A stretch of 64,000 bases of DNA, taken from the NCBI RefSeq assembly GCF_000026545.1, contig NC_011601.1, one strand, 5' to 3'. How positions within the stretch are numbered: position 1 is the first letter of the stretch; the number at the start of each line of letters is the position of its first letter. The position numbers were made by a program, and so were the translations under genes. A model generated the notes under the pieces. It ran no database searches, had not been told where the DNA came from, and saw only the letters and a list, made by a program, of their open reading frames with translations. Source of the DNA: Escherichia coli O127:H6 str. E2348/69 (GTDB taxonomy: Bacteria > Pseudomonadota > Gammaproteobacteria > Enterobacterales > Enterobacteriaceae). This document shows positions 5,890 through 64,000 of the stretch, in pieces.

Positions 5890-7533
5890 ATGTCCAGCTT
5901 GATCAATAACGCCATGAGCGGACTGAACGCGGCCCAGGCGGCGTTAAATACGGCAAGTAATAATATCTCCAGCTATAACGTTGCCGGATATACCCGCCAA
6001 ACCACTATTATGGCGCAGGCCAATAGCACGCTGGGCGCTGGCGGCTGGGTTGGCAATGGCGTCTACGTTTCTGGTGTGCAGCGTGAGTATGATGCATTTA
6101 TTACCAACCAGTTACGTGCGGCGCAGACGCAAAGTAGCGGCCTGACTGCCCGCTATGAGCAGATGTCGAAAATCGACAATATGCTCTCCACCAGTACCTC
6201 TTCGCTGGCAACACAGATGCAGGATTTCTTCACCAGCCTGCAAACGCTGGTAAGTAGCGCGGAAGACCCGGCAGCGCGCCAGGCGCTGATTGGGAAATCA
6301 GAAGGGTTGGTGAATCAGTTTAAAACCACCGATCAATATCTGCGCGACCAGGACAAACAGGTCAATATCGCGATAGGTGCCAGCGTTGATCAGATCAACA
6401 ATTACGCTAAACAAATCGCCAGCCTGAACGATCAAATCTCGCGTCTGACAGGCGTGGGGGCAGGGGCGTCACCTAACAATCTGCTGGATCAACGCGATCA
6501 ACTGGTGAGTGAATTAAACCAGATTGTTGGCGTAGAAGTTAGCGTTCAGGATGGTGGCACTTATAACATCACGATGGCCAATGGCTACTCACTGGTTCAG
6601 GGAAGTACGGCGCGGCAGCTGGCGGCAGTTCCTTCCACCGCCGACCCTTCTCGTACGACTGTCGCTTATATTGATGGGACGGCTGGCAATATTGAGATCC
6701 CGGAGAAATTACTGAATACCGGGTCGCTGGGCGGCATTCTGACATTCCGTTCTCAGGATCTGGACCAGACGCGTAATACGCTCGGACAACTGGCGCTGGC
6801 ATTTGCCGGGGCTTTCAACACCCAACACAAAGCCGGATTTGATGCCAACGGCGATGCCGGTAAAGATTTCTTTGCTATCGGTAAGCCCGCGGTTCTGCAA
6901 AACACGAAAAACAACGGTGACGTTGCGATCGGTGCCACGGTAACTGATGCCTCCGCGGTACTGGCGACAGATTACAAAATCTCGTTCGATAATAATCAGT
7001 GGCAGGTCACCCGCCTTGCCAGCAATACCACTTTTACGGTGACGCCGGATGCCAACGGTAAAGTGGCATTTGATGGTCTGGAGTTGACGTTTACAGGAAC
7101 GCCTGCCGTTAACGACAGCTTCACGCTGAAACCGGTAAGTGACGCCATCGTCAACATGGATGTATTAATCACTGACGAAGCGAAAATCGCCATGGCGAGC
7201 GAAGAAGATGCGGGTGATAGCGACAACCGCAACGGTCAGGCCCTGCTGGATCTGCAAAGCAACAGTAAAACGGTGGGCGGTGCGAAATCCTTTAACGACG
7301 CTTATGCCTCATTAGTGAGTGATATCGGGAATAAAACCGCGACGTTGAAAACCAGTAGCGCCACGCAAGGTAATGTGGTGACGCAGCTTTCCAATCAGCA
7401 GCAGTCGATTTCCGGTGTCAATCTCGATGAGGAGTACGGAAATCTGCAACGTTTTCAGCAGTATTACCTGGCGAATGCGCAGGTTCTGCAGACGGCAAAC
7501 GCGATTTTTGATGCGCTGATTAACATTCGCTAA
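5890..7533 (+). CDS. flgK: flagellar hook-associated protein 1 FlgK
   Basis: 547-aa ORF with conserved N- and C-terminal axial-protein motifs. Confidence 0.95.
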   Translation: MSSLINNAMSGLNAAQAALNTASNNISSYNVAGYTRQTTIMAQANSTLGAGGWVGNGVYVSGVQREYDAFITNQLRAAQTQSSGLTARYEQMSKIDNMLSTSTSSLATQMQDFFTSLQTLVSSAEDPAARQALIGKSEGLVNQFKTTDQYLRDQDKQVNIAIGASVDQINNYAKQIASLNDQISRLTGVGAGASPNNLLDQRDQLVSELNQIVGVEVSVQDGGTYNITMANGYSLVQGSTARQLAAVPSTADPSRTTVAYIDGTAGNIEIPEKLLNTGSLGGILTFRSQDLDQTRNTLGQLALAFAGAFNTQHKAGFDANGDAGKDFFAIGKPAVLQNTKNNGDVAIGATVTDASAVLATDYKISFDNNQWQVTRLASNTTFTVTPDANGKVAFDGLELTFTGTPAVNDSFTLKPVSDAIVNMDVLITDEAKIAMASEEDAGDSDNRNGQALLDLQSNSKTVGGAKSFNDAYASLVSDIGNKTATLKTSSATQGNVVTQLSNQQQSISGVNLDEEYGNLQRFQQYYLANAQVLQTANAIFDALINIR

Positions 7534-56110: not shown

Positions 56111-56302
56111 TTAAAGACCTGCCGGGATTTCGATATTATCCTGGTGAATAACTTTATCGACCGGGTAACAGTTACCGGGAATTTTCTGTTCGGTTGCTGC
56201 AGTCATACACTACTGCATTGTCCTGTGAACACTGACTGCAATATCAACTGGCTCTCCGGAAACAAGAAAAACTGTCAGAACAAGCACAAATGCTGAATTC
56301 AT
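56111..56302 (-). pseudogene. ydfD: ydfD-like lysis-protein gene interrupted by an in-frame amber codon
   Basis: MNSAFVLVLTVFLVSGEPVDIAVSVHRTMQ then TAG, then the frame continues CMTAATEQKIPGNCYPVDKVIHQDNIEIPAGL; total length equals a 63-aa gene; start overlaps the dicB stop as ATGA. Confidence 0.6.
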
Positions 56303-59028: not shown

Positions 59029-60040
59029 AAAGGTGAAAACCGGCAGTTCATCCAGTAAGTCTGTATTGACCTGGCTTGCTGATATGTGCGGTGCCGATTT
59101 GTGTGCATACCCGTCTGTATCTGCACTGGCAGAAGTAACGGAACTGAACAAAAAGACTGTGCAGGACAGCTTACGACACCTGATGGAGATTGGGTTAATT
59201 GTTGATACCGGTGAGAGAAAAGGCAGAACAAAGCAAATTGTGGTGTACCGACTTATCGGTGTAGAAGAAAGTGTTGCCGAGCCTGAATACACCCAAAAAC
59301 GGGAGTCTTTAAAGGTGGGTAAAATCGGTGCTGTTAATAAAAACAGTACCGAAAATGGTTATGTTTCAGCACAAAACAGACCCAAAAACGGAACTCTTAG
59401 CTGCATGGAAAATAACCAAAGACACCCAAATTTTCCATCAAAGACACCCAAAAACGGATCACGGAACCCAAAGGAACCCAAAGAGCTAAACCCCACACAT
59501 AACGCACGCGAGAGTGCTCCGACCAGTGAGCAGAAAGTTTTGTCGTTACAGGCTGCACCTCCTGTATTCCTGGATGGCCTGAGCGAACCCATCGAAAAAT
59601 TTCCGATGACCGATAGCTGGTATCCGTCACGGGATTTTCGACGACGGGCTGCGTTGTGGGGGATGGCTTTGCCGGAGACAGAATTCACACCTGCTGAACT
59701 TGCCGCCTTCCGGGACTACTGGGCTGCTGAGGGGAAAGTGTTTACGCAGATTCAGTGGGAGCAGAAATTCGCCCGTCACGTAAATCACGTCAGGGCGCAG
59801 GTTAAACCAGTCAGCAAGGGGGTAAACCATGCAGCAGCACCAGGTGACACCGCATCACGGGCAGTTCAGGAAATTCGGGCAGCACGTGAGCAGTGGGAAC
59901 GTGAAAACGGATTTATCAGCGACGGAAACGGCCTGGAAGCTGTGGGAACTCATGGGGGAGGTTTATTCGAACCGCTGGACCCAGAAGAACGGGGCCGCAC
60001 CTTCGAAGCTCTGGATTGCACAGATTGGTGCGATGACTGA
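59000..60040 (+). CDS. phage replication initiation protein (O-like, N-terminal winged HTH, DnaT-like C-terminal region)
   Basis: Start taken at MSIDALRWAKKV (ORF track 58925); HTH segment LAEVTELNKKTVQDSLRHLMEIGLIV. Confidence 0.7.
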   Translation: MSIDALRWAKKVKTGSSSSKSVLTWLADMCGADLCAYPSVSALAEVTELNKKTVQDSLRHLMEIGLIVDTGERKGRTKQIVVYRLIGVEESVAEPEYTQKRESLKVGKIGAVNKNSTENGYVSAQNRPKNGTLSCMENNQRHPNFPSKTPKNGSRNPKEPKELNPTHNARESAPTSEQKVLSLQAAPPVFLDGLSEPIEKFPMTDSWYPSRDFRRRAALWGMALPETEFTPAELAAFRDYWAAEGKVFTQIQWEQKFARHVNHVRAQVKPVSKGVNHAAAPGDTASRAVQEIRAAREQWERENGFISDGNGLEAVGTHGGGLFEPLDPEERGRTFEALDCTDWCDD

Positions 60041-60494
60041 GCAGAAAATCCGACAGGTCTGCCGCCAGTGCATGGACCGCTGCCGGGCGGGTGAAACATG
60101 GCCTCCGGACCTGGCTGAGTTTGTGGCGCTGATTTCTGAAAGCGGAGCCAATCCATTCGGTCTGACGGTGGATGCCGTGATGGAGGAGTACCGTCGCTGG
60201 CGCAACGAGTCCTGGCGATACGACGGGAGCGATAAATACCCGTGGTCTCAGCCTGTGCTGTATCACATTTGCCTCGAGATGCGTTCAAAGGGGATTGAGC
60301 GGCAGATGACCGAAGGGGAGTTAAAACGGCTTGCAGAACGGCAGCTGACGAAATGGGCAAAGCATGTTAGTAACGGCCTGAGTGTTCCGCCAGTCCGGCG
60401 ACAACTGGCGGCACCCAAACGCCCGTCGGGGCCAACGCCAATTGAGTTGCTGAAACAGGAATATGAACGCCGGAAAGCGGCTGGGCTTGTCTGA
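59829..60494 (+). CDS. phage replication protein, lambda P-like (helicase loader)
   Basis: 221-aa ORF; C-terminal DKYPWSQPVLYHICLEMRSKG parallels lambda P (ESYPWKSNAHYWLV...); overlaps the O-like gene out of frame for about 210 nt; start uncertain (alternatives 59952, 60033). Confidence 0.7.
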   Translation: MQQHQVTPHHGQFRKFGQHVSSGNVKTDLSATETAWKLWELMGEVYSNRWTQKNGAAPSKLWIAQIGAMTEQKIRQVCRQCMDRCRAGETWPPDLAEFVALISESGANPFGLTVDAVMEEYRRWRNESWRYDGSDKYPWSQPVLYHICLEMRSKGIERQMTEGELKRLAERQLTKWAKHVSNGLSVPPVRRQLAAPKRPSGPTPIELLKQEYERRKAAGLV

Positions 60495-60526
60495 GTTGAG
60501 AAGTAATTTTTACCGGGAGGAAATTT

Positions 60527-60801
60527 ATGGAGACTGTTTTTGACGCACTGAAAGCAATGGGAAAAGCCACATCCATAGAACTTGCTGCGCGCGTGAAGAA
60601 GTGCTGAACGAACTATGGGAACTGAAAAAGGCTGGTTTTGTTGATAAAAGCGCGTACACCTGGCGTGTGGCTGATAACAACGTTCAGCAGGAACAGCCAG
60701 CGCAGGCAGAACTGCCGGAAGAAACCACCACAATGAGTGAAGTTATGCAGCGCATACTGGCATTTTATCAGGGAAATGTTCGATATTTTAGACGTTACTA
60801 G
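60527..60801 (+). pseudogene. small prophage gene split by a frameshift
   Basis: [26 protein letters not shown] then stop at about 60605; the reading frame continues after a 1-nt shift as ...[25 protein letters not shown]...RYFRRY (60601-60801). Confidence 0.45.
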
Positions 60802-61240
60802 ATTAAAGAGCATTAGTTCAGATGTGAATTGACATTGTGTGGCACAGGGTTGGGCTAGCGTGGGGGTTTGCTTTGTGTAAGAAACGGATGCTCTGCAAAT
60901 TACTACTAATGCTTAATGTTAGTCTGATCTGCTCCCCGATGATTAATACACCGCTATGTTAGTAATGTCTGTAGATCGCTGTGTGTTGCATCCATCGGTT
61001 GACCCCACAGTCCAAACCAGACTGTCAGCTTTGATTCGATTCTATCTACTCAACCTGTCAGGTAATGTCTGAGCTAATACACAGAGTACGGCTATCGCGA
61101 ACTTTAAGCTAGGTATCTGATACGCACCGTTCACTTGGTCGTACTTCTTGCACTGACTAGCTATCGTGCGCAGTTATTTATAGGTAATCTCCAGTGTATA
61201 ATTTTCCAACTTATGGGAGATTGTAAAACAGGAGGAATAT

Positions 61241-62083
61241 ATGAGGAAAAAATCGTTTGGACGTTGCCCGTTTGATTTCGACGAAGATGTAAAAAAAATA
61301 GCCGCGATAAATAAATATATCCATGCGAAATTTGAGAGGCATAAAAATAAAATAGATAACCTAAAGGGGGTGGAACAAAAATTGATGGTTTTACATTACT
61401 TTAATGTACTGAATGAACTTAGTAATCAGGCTATATTTTCTTTGAGTACCGGAGCCTTTTCAGCATCGGAAGTATTAACTAGAGTTATAATGGAACAGGC
61501 TGCCAATCAATTTTATATAGCAATTGATGATGGAAAAAATGCACAAGCATTACTCAAGGGTAGTAAGAAATTAGTTCATAGTAATGGGAAACGGTGGCTG
61601 GAGTGTTTAAAATCCAAAGAAATGACTAATCCAGCAGCAGATGAAAGGATTCGTATCGGAAAAGAGCTAACTGATATGTTTAATAGATTGTGGCCAAATA
61701 CACCTGAATATCCTGGAACCAAAAAGCTTTTCGAAGTAATTGGCTGGGAAACACACTATCATGCCTATTACGTCCCTCTTTGTGATTCAATACATACATT
61801 CTCTGATGATATGGCAAATATAGTATCTCTATATAATGCAATCCAAAGCGATAAAACTACTGCTATCGAACTCACTCTTGCAGTTAAACAAGAAAATAAA
61901 CGGCTGGCAATTTATAATGTCGTAATTGCTATTGGCCTGCGGTGTGAGGCCTTAGTAAATGTATTTAACTCTTTAGGTTATCGAGATATTATAACTGAAA
62001 TGGCGCCAACAATAGATGCAGTCAACCAGATTATAATTCGATATGATGATTTCGAACATTCCAGAATTTTTTATTGTCAATAA
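61241..62083 (+). CDS. hypothetical protein, AT-rich cargo gene (predicted mostly alpha-helical; function unknown)
   Basis: 280-aa ORF with AGGAGG SD 7 nt upstream and TATAAT -10 at about 61196; Lys/Ile/Asn-rich codon usage unlike the flanking prophage backbone. Confidence 0.7.
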   Translation: MRKKSFGRCPFDFDEDVKKIAAINKYIHAKFERHKNKIDNLKGVEQKLMVLHYFNVLNELSNQAIFSLSTGAFSASEVLTRVIMEQAANQFYIAIDDGKNAQALLKGSKKLVHSNGKRWLECLKSKEMTNPAADERIRIGKELTDMFNRLWPNTPEYPGTKKLFEVIGWETHYHAYYVPLCDSIHTFSDDMANIVSLYNAIQSDKTTAIELTLAVKQENKRLAIYNVVIAIGLRCEALVNVFNSLGYRDIITEMAPTIDAVNQIIIRYDDFEHSRIFYCQ

Positions 62084-62140
62084 TTAATTGGCAGAATTCG
62101 TACATGCACAACAACTAGTTATAGTTGACCTATTTCGCTC

Positions 62141-62709
62141 TTGAGAGACAACCATACTCAAATCTTCCACATTGCAGGAGATTTGAGTATGAATACGTCA
62201 CCGAGGAACAAAGACAGTATCATAGGCCCAAAAAGACCACTTCAGATATCTCATATCTGGGGGCTCCAAATCCGGCTTGAACTGGAAGGTAAAACGCGTG
62301 ATTTAGCTCGGTTTCAAGCAGAGCTACGGTGCTGCAACTGAAAAACTGGCAGTCCTATCCAATTTGAGATAACCAAAGGGACAAGAGAAGCTGTTTCTGC
62401 ATTGATAAAGCTTGGCAATTTACGCAGTAAAGACTACTTGTTCCGATCTCGGGTCGGTACTAACCAACACATATCAATCCTGCAATATAACCGAATCTTT
62501 CATAGGAGGGAGAAAAGCTTGGTCTCGAAGATTCGCTTTACAGCACACATTCCATGAGAAGAACAAAACCTTGCCTTGTCTGCAAGAAAACTAAGAATCT
62601 CCGGGTGATCCAACTTCCGTTGGGCCATAAGAAAACGGAAAGCACAGTTCGTTATCTGGGTATAGAAGTTGATGATGCATTAGAGATCTCTGAATCGATC
62701 GAAGTCTAA
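62141..62709 (+). pseudogene. decayed tyrosine recombinase (integrase-family) gene
   Basis: Recombinase segments spread over three frames: ...KRPLQISHIWGLQIRLELEGKTRDLARFQAELRCC / FEITKGTREAVSALIKLGNLRSKDYLF / SMRRTKPCLVCKKTKNLRVIQLPLGHKKTESTVRYLGIEVDDALEISESIEV (HxxR...Y catalytic tail). Confidence 0.6.
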
Positions 62710-62715
62710 AGCTGT

Positions 62716-62737
62716 CAGGGCTGCAGCAGCAGCCCTG
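62716..62737. repeat. perfect hairpin (9-bp stem, 4-nt loop) immediately after the recombinase relic
   Basis: cagggctgc-agca-gcagccctg; no U-tract follows, so not a canonical terminator. Confidence 0.5.
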
Positions 62738-63121
62738 TGCCAAGAGCGTACCAATATATGTCTCAAAAAATTGGGCACAGGTCAATATCAATACCAACAA
62801 CTCTGATTGTGCTCATGTGATTTACTCCTGTAGAAAACGCAGACAGTAAAAATATTTCACTGGCTGCTTCAGACAGGGCGTCCATCATATCATTACATAA
62901 CAATAGCGGGGCACGATATCTAGACATGCAGCAACGATGGACATAGAATGAGTACAATCAAAAGCATGTTTAACTACTTTAATTTAAAAATCTTAGAATC
63001 TTAGGTGTAGAGTTCAATACTTAGTTACATACCCTTTTGAAAGCATCACAAATCATAACTATGAGCCTGTTAAAGGCATAGGTATTCTTAATTAAGAGCA
63101 TTTTAATGAGAGAAAAATAAA

Positions 63122-64000
63122 ATGAAAAGACTATATTATACCCATCATGATAGTCGAACCTTAAAACTTGCTATAGAAGGTGATGTTTCTGATAATGCGA
63201 ATATTTTTACAGTAATTGTAGGTAAAAATGGCGTTGGAAAAAGCAGATTGTTATCTCAGATTGCTAAAGACTGTATTCAAGATATTCATTTCTTGAAAAC
63301 TTTTAATCCATTATTTGACAGAGAAATAACACCAAAGTTAATTGCCGTATCTACCAGCCCATTCGATAAATTCCCTCCAGGGCGTAGGTCATTAAATCAC
63401 CAAAGGAAAGAAAATAATTATCGCTATGTGGGTATGCGTGGAGAAGGCCCCTTCGGCGTATCAAATGCCGTATCCCTTTTATCTTCAGCAGCGAGAGGTT
63501 GGCTAGAGAAACTTGCTTATTCAGAAAATCCTGCAAATTTACTCGATGTTTTTCATTCTATTGATTTTGAGCCCCATATAGAGTTTGTATTTAAACCAAC
63601 TTACAACGGACCGGACACTCCTGACTATAACTTCATTGGTGTATATTCAGATGAGATATTAACGGAAGTTAAGGAGTTATATTTAAAATACAATATAAAA
63701 ATTGACAGGAAGAATATTGAGAGTCTCTTAAAGTTAAACTCCGAATCACGTCATGATATTTACGAAGCACTGGTTGAAATTAATCGATTTGAACCTGAAC
63801 GTAGGGCTGTAACCTTGTCAGTCGATTTTACCAATGGTGAAACATTGGTTGGCTCGACTTATGCGAATAATTATTTTTCTAGATCAATTCTTAAACTTAT
63901 GAACGCTGGCTTCATGAGATTGATGGATATGCGACTCATAAAAAAAAGCTATGGTCCCATGTCACTTAAACGTGCGAGCTCGGGAGAACAATGTTTATTA
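63122..64000 (+). CDS. ABC-type (AAA_15/AAA_21/OLD-like) ATPase, N-terminal 293 codons; runs off the window end
   Basis: Open frame from the ATG at 63122 with no stop to 64000 (absent from the ORF track for that reason); Walker A VIVGKNGVGKSRLL near residue 33; ABC-signature-like SSGEQ at the last codons; AT-rich. Confidence 0.7.
   Translation, partial: MKRLYYTHHDSRTLKLAIEGDVSDNANIFTVIVGKNGVGKSRLLSQIAKDCIQDIHFLKTFNPLFDREITPKLIAVSTSPFDKFPPGRRSLNHQRKENNYRYVGMRGEGPFGVSNAVSLLSSAARGWLEKLAYSENPANLLDVFHSIDFEPHIEFVFKPTYNGPDTPDYNFIGVYSDEILTEVKELYLKYNIKIDRKNIESLLKLNSESRHDIYEALVEINRFEPERRAVTLSVDFTNGETLVGSTYANNYFSRSILKLMNAGFMRLMDMRLIKKSYGPMSLKRASSGEQCLL

Follow-up and report, generated by a model that had tools for sequence, protein, structure and literature searches.

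The window analysed here is a stretch of 64,000 nucleotides (nt) on one strand of the chromosome of enteropathogenic Escherichia coli (EPEC) O127:H6 str. E2348/69 (contig NC_011601.1), and this work deals with the AT-rich island that begins near its end, at about 60.8 kb, inside a prophage of the Qin/Rac type. The island holds a gene of the DUF5677 family, the relic of a small tyrosine recombinase gene, hereafter called REC, and the genes of a Septu system, ptuA and ptuB, which run past the window end. Taken as a whole, it is likely that this segment is a Qin/Rac-like cargo slot in which a DUF5677 and a Septu cassette stand around a dead REC, both brought there by recombination at two kinds of short palindromic site, X and Y. 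All genes and sites of the island lie on the + strand. Positions 60400-64000 correspond to 2886318-2882718 of NZ_CP059840.2 (E2348/69 chromosome) at 100% identity; the 31.6 kb surrounding locus is L001, window coordinates being L001 coordinates plus 46399, and positions beyond the window end are given as window-equivalents.

The GC content, taken in 500-bp segments, is 0.52-0.58 at 59.5-60.7 kb and only 0.34-0.45 in the remainder of the window, starting at 60.75 kb. The segment 60802-64000 has a GC content of 0.380 (z = -6.1 against all other 3.2-kb segments of the window, which average 0.511 +/- 0.021 with a minimum of 0.457), and GC at third codon positions is 0.27 for the DUF5677 gene, 0.28 for ptuA and 0.21 for ptuB, as opposed to 0.38-0.63 for genes of the prophage backbone. 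These values bear out a previous sequence-only reading, which had described the DNA as AT-rich from about 60.8 kb and distinct from the backbone; the ORF-free stretch (lacking open reading frames), the orphan gene, the recombinase pseudogene and the ATPase that it had listed were all four found in their places.

Genes of the island

The gene for the Septu ABC-type ATPase, ptuA, starts at 63122 and occupies 63122..64000 of the window (879 of its 1374 nt), ending at window-equivalent 64495. It is followed by the HNH nuclease gene ptuB (window-equivalent 64482-65117), and the cassette ends at 65190. Both genes were called by PADLOC, are co-oriented and overlap by 14 nt. PtuA, with 457 amino acids (aa) in the full record, matches the PADLOC profile PtuA1 (PDLC00283) over residues 2-455 (E 1.9e-165), and PtuB, with 211 aa, matches PtuB1 (PDLC00325) over residues 4-209 (E 1.1e-83). 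The motifs of PtuA are intact, namely Walker A GKNGVGKS (34-41), the ABC signature SSGEQ (286), Walker B LIDEPE (310) and the H-loop THSP (346), and PtuB has C56xxC59, H75, N91 and C96xxC99. As no reverse transcriptase gene is annotated and no retron RNA family gave a match in 7.5 kb, the pair is taken as stand-alone, and ptuAB is identified as an intact stand-alone Septu system of type I, which is presumably active. What had been noted as an ATPase is indeed present, and proves to be one half of this two-gene system. The best sigma-70-like promoter match in a consensus scan (TAGACA-17-TAGAAT, 10/12) lies at 62921..62949 (+), about 170 nt 5' of ptuA; promoter and terminator scans performed at or below chance level, so that their results are hints only.

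Two type I systems offer a comparison, Septu Ec-B88 (PMC13096335) and the PtuAB of Li et al. 2024 (PDB 8EE4). The E2348/69 pair has in common with them the overlapping co-oriented gene pair, the full-length PtuA1 and PtuB1 profile matches, the ATPase motifs and the HNH residues H75 and N91, and differs from them in being remote in sequence, carried by a lambdoid prophage cassette and known from its genes alone. In Ec-B88, H75 and N91, which bear the same residue numbers as in the PtuB described here, are essential (PMC13096335). According to published work on other Septu systems, PtuA oligomers restrain PtuB, and the HNH nuclease is freed upon infection; the freed nuclease cuts tRNA-Tyr within its variable loop or, per other reports, DNA, and phage replication is halted in a manner similar to abortive infection. 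In our literature search no paper on the Septu of E2348/69 was found.

The gene at 61241..62083 encodes a protein of 280 aa that matches Pfam PF18928 (DUF5677; E 8.9e-9, residues 49-195) and phrog_4167. It is preceded by a cassette leader (60890..61240), which is the ORF-free stretch of the previous reading and from 60924 on is 85% identical to the copy in a P2-like prophage of E. coli S88; the DUF5677 cassette is 85-92% identical to that copy. Within 60802-61240 the largest ORFs have 41 and 46 aa, and an Rfam scan of this stretch gave no match, neither to a retron nor to any other RNA. The AlphaFold model of the DUF5677 protein (predicted local distance difference test score, pLDDT, of 95) is all-alpha and had no significant fold match. 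In a search of 1.84 billion proteins, 53 representatives of the family reached E <= 1e-3, and residues R81, E85, F164, Y173 and H185 are invariant in 43 homologues. The PHROGs match is to an unnamed family, a profile search of PDB sequences returned nothing, and the gene contexts of two distant homologues were uninformative. The idea that the protein is a HEPN nuclease was dropped, since the PADLOC, NCBIfam, PHROGs, PDB-sequence and homologue-context checks gave no function. It has been described in a preprint that the DUF5677 domain is enriched beside defence-linked serine recombinases in Bacillota. By association, DUF5677 is probably another anti-phage or phage-competition gene.

The REC pseudogene (62189..62709), annotated in RefSeq as frameshifted and with an internal stop, derives from a tyrosine recombinase of about 200 aa consisting of the catalytic domain only. 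Compared to an intact copy, it has lost the box I arginine region by a deletion of 82 nt and carries one +1 and one -1 indel. Intact REC proteins, such as those of YD786 (WP_023147793) and S88 (WP_001514314), have 194-200 aa, contain of the Pfam models only the Phage_integrase catalytic domain and keep the motifs LRGCDL, HSMRRT, LLGH and RYL. Their best NCBIfam match, 'XerA / integron integrase', reaches 54.6 bits for a cut-off of 220, and REC stays below the cut-off of every curated family; the tyrosine-type DNA invertase model NF007371 gives 27.5 bits (cut-off 222), with Xer-type models scoring higher. In public databases REC carries generic names only. A nucleotide comparison gave no match between REC and the K-12 recombinase relic ydfW/intK.

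With the DUF5677-recombinase segment as query, the REC part was retrieved at about 88-91% nucleotide identity from 801 of the 5,426 complete E. coli genomes, and only 54 of these 801 also have DUF5677. Moreover, 641 plasmids carry it (558 are from Klebsiella), and the nucleotide identity is about 90-99% overall. In P2-like prophages it occupies the G/FI (Z/fun) slot, as in S88, where DUF5677 and REC occur together without Septu; in other lambdoid prophages it lies in the identical replication-to-hokD slot, and a third phage backbone and a chromosomal island contain it as well. Its neighbours vary from locus to locus and are often known defence systems, among them PD-T7-1, Old, a different Septu, PD-T4-10 and bSEFIR. 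What is conserved is a module reaching from about 70 nt 5' of the start codon to about 50 nt past the stop. The recombinase pseudogene of the previous reading is present, and to judge from this distribution REC is the signature gene of the slot and not an incidental relic.

A hairpin at 62153..62191 (-21.2 kcal/mol, z = -7.3), detected as an inverted repeat, holds the GGAG ribosome-binding site and the ATG of REC in its 3' arm. Its 15-bp stem is kept in all REC copies (for instance at 7019-7057 of locus L005, -23.5 kcal/mol, z = -6.9). By burying the ribosome-binding site and the start codon it recalls the way in which some transposases are protected against read-through translation. A second, truncated 3' fragment of REC accompanies one cargo gene, cluster c69, at two loci (L007 3893-4089 and L024 8006-8258), which suggests that past recombination took part of the REC module along with cargo.

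X and Y sites

At the related loci, the edges of the REC module and of every cargo unit are marked by 24-bp palindromes of the form GTCCGCT-N10-AGCGGAC. They are of two kinds, X with the centre CTGTGCCAGG and Y with the centre TTTCGCTCAT, the latter being roughly the reverse complement of the former. We counted 46 such sites in 434 kb of fetched loci as opposed to 3 expected from shuffles, and the rest of the window (the other 60 kb) has no site scoring as well. The order of the arrays is the same everywhere: backbone, X, cargo, any number of repeats of Y-18 nt-X and cargo, then Y'-REC-X', cargo, Y and backbone. Site orientation follows that of REC in all cases but one, a site with 5 mismatches in L024 that was aligned as Y-type. 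The Y-18 nt-X junction can form a single long, imperfect hairpin (-32.4 kcal/mol, z = -5.3, at L022 6390-6455).

Three observations point to crossover inside the sites, to judge by the breakpoints. The outer arms of Y' and X' change with the adjoining cassette and the inner arms are constant with REC; two different left contexts are found for cassette c69, with the break exactly within X; and the same outer flanks, relB-X on one side and Y on the other, enclose flxA alone in K-12 or a 7-kb REC array in a Klebsiella IncFIA plasmid (L035).

In the window the platform is decayed. At the left slot edge, a decayed X (GTTTGCTTTGTGTAAGAAACGGAT, 60866..60889) agrees at 16 of 24 positions with the aligned near-consensus X of YD786 and L007; it is seen by its alignment position only, since at this level of mismatch it is not above chance when taken alone. 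At the left end of the REC module, alignment of REC upstream regions places a decayed Y' half-site with a mutated arm (TGACCTATTTCGCTCTTGAGAGAC, 62126..62149). The site X' (AGCAGCCCTGTGCCAAGAGCGTAC, 62728..62751) forms the right end of the REC module and the left edge of the Septu cassette; its outer arm reads AGCGTAC, the consensus being AGCGGAC, and homology to all other REC loci ends here. That cargo stands between a left X and a right Y is clear at the related loci, and the window shows the decayed X, Y' and X' and no terminal Y. Two other candidates for recombination sites, a 57-nt motif in the ORF-free stretch and the 11-nt motif CAGACTGTCAG, were rejected, each being part or neighbour of the X/Y sites and the cassette leader.

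In the Pantoea plasmid pJZ2-01 (L036 1570-9900), a REC with 99% identity to its E. coli counterpart is surrounded by ten X/Y sites in the space of 10 kb. The genes between these sites are small and do not look like defence genes: they encode a DUF2778 protein, a DUF6434 protein, an LRAT-family protein and a chemotaxis receptor. Cassettes are therefore not confined to defence genes.

Borders and variability of the slot

Upstream of the island, positions 60736..60865 are a remnant of the backbone, 81% identical (blastn and alignment) to what precedes the hotspot in prophages of the YD786 type, namely the DUF977 gene's 3' end and a spacer; the alignment spans 60736-60899. This places the left border, both compositional and structural, at about 60866-60890. 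A left border at 60977, seen in two genomes, was rejected as a site, for it is an IS3-mediated truncation. On the right, homology to all other hok-bearing prophages restarts 73 nt past the ptuB stop (L001 18791, window-equivalent 65190). The island proper thus measures about 4.3 kb, with the first 3.1 kb inside the window and about 1.2 kb beyond its end. The extent of 60802-64000 proposed by the sequence-only reading holds for the AT-rich segment within the window, but the left border lies slightly further in and the right end is past the window.

Of the 5,426 complete E. coli genomes, 18 have the whole cargo, and its arrangement is the same in all of them, whereas the left flank (P and DUF1627 genes) is present in 3,411 and the hok leader, as right flank, in 4,572. 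In K-12 Qin, homology extends to ydaT/ydfX and returns 16 nt before hokD; the interval is filled in K-12 by ydfW-flxA-ydfV-relBE (2.1 kb) and in E2348/69 by 7.8 kb consisting of the replication genes, the island and an element of the IS481 family. Four further Qin/Rac-like prophages, sampled by their hok flank alone with no reference to REC, carry in the slot a DUF4209 protein, QueH, a YobI-family NTPase and an alpha/beta hydrolase; in two of the four, both without REC, X and Y bracket a single cargo. In all, at least ten different cargo sets were found in this slot.

Since K-12 Qin and the four sampled prophages hold other cargo at the same place, the reading of this segment as a variable cargo hotspot of a Qin/Rac-like prophage, which the previous note had proposed, is supported. 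Neither of the two outcomes set beforehand as refuting it, a composition like that of the backbone or conservation of the genes at the slot, was found. The K-12 accessory genes that the note placed here were correctly named as regards flxA and relBE, but hokD is the conserved right flank and not cargo. Moreover, the slot is not merely variable: it is bounded by short sites of the recombinase type and marked by a very conserved small recombinase, both of which recur in P2-like phages, lambdoid prophages and genomic islands and on hundreds of plasmids of Klebsiella and E. coli.

One of the prophages of this kind, in E. coli E21845/O/A (L044 2957-6589), has a YobI-family P-loop NTPase of 1210 aa, bracketed by X and Y and without REC, in the DUF977-to-hok slot, and an IS3 element adjoins its hok. 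According to PMC13001434, the YobI family includes the defence protein Tmn.

Origin of the island

The explanation that we consider likely is as follows. The slot extends from where the replication module ends to the hok/sok-rem-DUF968-rusA block, and it holds two horizontally acquired cassettes of low GC content, one with DUF5677 and one with Septu, on either side of the now dead REC. Most likely, they arrived by site-specific recombination at the 24-bp X and Y sites, which REC would recognise. This is inferred from the site architecture, the fixed order of sites and genes and the breakpoints inside the sites. REC may recombine like sites, X with X and Y with Y, so that a unit made of cargo and a Y-18 nt-X junction could be excised or inserted in the way of an integron cassette. 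In the window, the left X and the arms of Y' and X' are mutated, REC has become a pseudogene and the right Y is deleted; as a consequence of the decay of X, REC and Y, the cargo is now fixed and inherited with the prophage.

Several points weigh against this explanation or against parts of it. Catalysis by REC at X and Y is deduced from their association. X' is the sole site that can be recognised from the window sequence by itself; the Septu cassette has no Y site at its right junction, and the terminal Y is absent. Two of the four sampled prophages have cargo but no detectable X or Y, so that the slot also changes by other routes. As for function, PtuA is distant from the solved PtuA (8EE4; E 3e-7), PtuB has no detectable match to the solved PtuB, and phage defence by this pair would follow from its identity as Septu. 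The DUF5677 protein has no PADLOC or NCBIfam match, and the single DUF5677 ORF assayed, from Enterococcus (preprint), was not among the active defences.

The alternative that survives best is a plain acquisition of 'moron' genes by illegitimate or homologous exchange between phages, the REC relic and the palindromes being bystanders that serve, for example, as linker homology. It would account for the cargo of the two hotspots without X or Y and for the right junction of the Septu cassette, which lies about 240 nt past the usual position of Y and has the look of an ordinary deletion; furthermore, REC and the hok leader, both highly conserved, could anchor homologous exchange. However, the sites are shaped like core sites of tyrosine recombinases, with inverted arms of 7-8 bp and an asymmetric centre of 8-10 bp, and come in two kinds with a fixed order and orientation relative to REC. 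Homology also breaks inside the 24-bp sites, between outer and inner arm, and the same sites bound cargo in P2-like, lambdoid, plasmid and chromosomal-island backbones. We therefore regard this alternative as unlikely.

The invertase matches of REC, weak as they are, raise another alternative, phase variation, in which REC would be a FimB/FimE-like invertase and X and Y would flip cassettes with respect to outside promoters, turning defence on or off. Like FimB and FimE, REC has about 200 aa and the catalytic domain only; Y resembles the reverse complement of X, and cargo is found in either orientation within the same slot. The NF007371 score is, however, far below its cut-off and lower than those of Xer-type models, and the units between the sites are whole genes and not promoter segments. 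The centres of X and Y agree at about half of the positions in the inverted register, whereas tyrosine recombinases normally require identical overlap regions. Besides, no cassette was seen in both orientations between one pair of sites, c28 and c69 having the same orientation in two arrays each, and the REC of the window is dead, which leaves no switching there. Phase variation is accordingly quite improbable in our judgement.

That the island is an independent satellite-like integrative element, inserted into the prophage with REC as its own integrase, fits the recombinase gene, the foreign composition and the sharp borders, but is very improbable given that genes for replication, packaging or excision are absent, that its ends have no direct repeats, that REC lies in the middle of the cargo and not at an end, and that the cargoes occur independently (DUF5677 and REC without Septu in P2-like prophages, other cargo in other arrays).

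Taken by itself, the island adds a prophage-borne Septu and a candidate gene, DUF5677, to the defence inventory of E. coli, and EPEC E2348/69 may resist some phages by means of it. If REC does act on X and Y, this would explain how defence genes shuttle between unrelated mobile elements, the arrangement X-cargo-Y would provide a simple DNA signature for the mining of new defence genes, and classic loci such as P2 fun(Z) and K-12 flxA would fall into one framework.

Links to known systems

The same type of bracketing is found in phage P2 (NC_001895, L041), where fun(Z) lies between an X at 15335-15358 and a Y at 17432-17455. The gene fun(Z) is a classical P2 gene that blocks T5. The P2 Z/fun locus and the slot described here have in common 24-bp X and Y of identical type, which surround fun(Z) and also DUF5677-REC in the S88 P2-like prophages; the difference is that the E2348/69 slot is lambdoid and lies between the replication genes and hokD, with decayed sites and a dead recombinase. 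For the variable Z/fun locus of P2-like phages, flanking inverted repeats have been proposed to serve site-specific exchange, according to the summary of Nilsson et al. 2004 in PMC8987985, and Z/fun is the second P2 defence hotspot of Vassallo et al. 2022 (PMC9519451). A platform made of a recombinase and its sites was at least partly anticipated in 2004. With the exception of Nilsson et al. 2004 as cited by others, our literature search turned up no account of the recombinase platform.

K-12 Qin (dicC-ydfX-ydfW-flxA-ydfV-relBE-hokD) belongs to the same prophage family and has the same slot, with flxA bracketed by X and Y; in MG1655 (L003) the sites are at 5982-6005 and 6973-6996. It differs in that the replication genes are lost, there is no REC, and the X-flxA-Y unit stands with relBE in the opposite orientation. 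The sequences just outside the K-12 flxA sites are identical to those flanking the 7-kb REC array of the Klebsiella IncFIA plasmid, and for this reason relBE-flxA in Qin would seem to be a unit of that cassette system in inverted position.

Integrons that carry defence genes (bioRxiv 10.1101/2024.07.02.601686) are similar in having a tyrosine recombinase beside promoter-poor cargo, which is often defence, and palindromic site ends; the hairpin of the Y-18 nt-X junction recalls attC. They differ in several respects, for IntI has about 320 aa with an integron-specific insertion and works with attI/Pc and attC, whereas REC has 200 aa and is below the model cut-offs, stands within the array, between cargo units of both orientations, and is accompanied by 24-bp loxP-like cores and no attI/Pc. 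An IntI-type integrase, attI and attC were accordingly not found in the REC platform.

The pdif modules of Acinetobacter plasmids are cargo bounded by short core sites in alternating inverted orientation and are found on more than one replicon; pdif sites are XerC/XerD sites served by host recombinases. The likeness lies in the discrete cargo modules, and the difference in that X and Y are unrelated to dif and that a dedicated small recombinase travels with the array.

A more general proposal may be considered, namely that the island is the fossil of an integron-like platform in which REC and the loxP-like X and Y move cassettes of one gene or an operon, many of them anti-phage systems, among P2-like phages, lambdoid prophages, plasmids and chromosomal islands of Enterobacterales, with the mechanism being right and not yet described so generally. 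We put it forward tentatively, as a possibility with the balance somewhat against it. If it were true, P2 fun(Z), K-12 flxA and the present Septu would be cassettes of one system, and new defence genes could be sought by sequence through the sites.

Flanking genes and host prophage

The prophage adjoins potC and has a Qin/Rac layout, with int, xis, exo, ydfD, dicB, ydfABC, a dicA-like repressor, dicC, ydaT and O-like and P-like genes. The gene of the P-like replication protein (60033..60494, + strand, GC 0.58, RefSeq annotation) is the last intact gene of the backbone. After it comes the remnant of a DUF1627 (ydaW-like) gene (60527..60729, + strand), a frameshifted and truncated pseudogene in RefSeq, with Rac-type ydaV/ydaW matches in phage records. 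Likewise, ydfD of this prophage (56111-56302; L001 9712-9903) is a RefSeq pseudogene with an internal stop. Together with the insertion sequence (IS) elements downstream, the ydfD pseudogene and the DUF1627 remnant suggest that the E2348/69 prophage is partly degraded.

Next after the right border of the island is the hok/sok leader (Rfam RF01794, 112 bits, L001 18863-19029). An element of the IS481 family (L001 19024-20118, window-equivalent 65423-66517) interrupts the Shine-Dalgarno sequence of hokD with duplication of GGAGA, and it splits the hokD coding sequence from the sok/mok leader in E2348/69. This element is missing from the otherwise identical islands of two other strains. At the relE-hokD junction of K-12, homology breaks at the same nucleotide as the insertion point of the IS481-family element.

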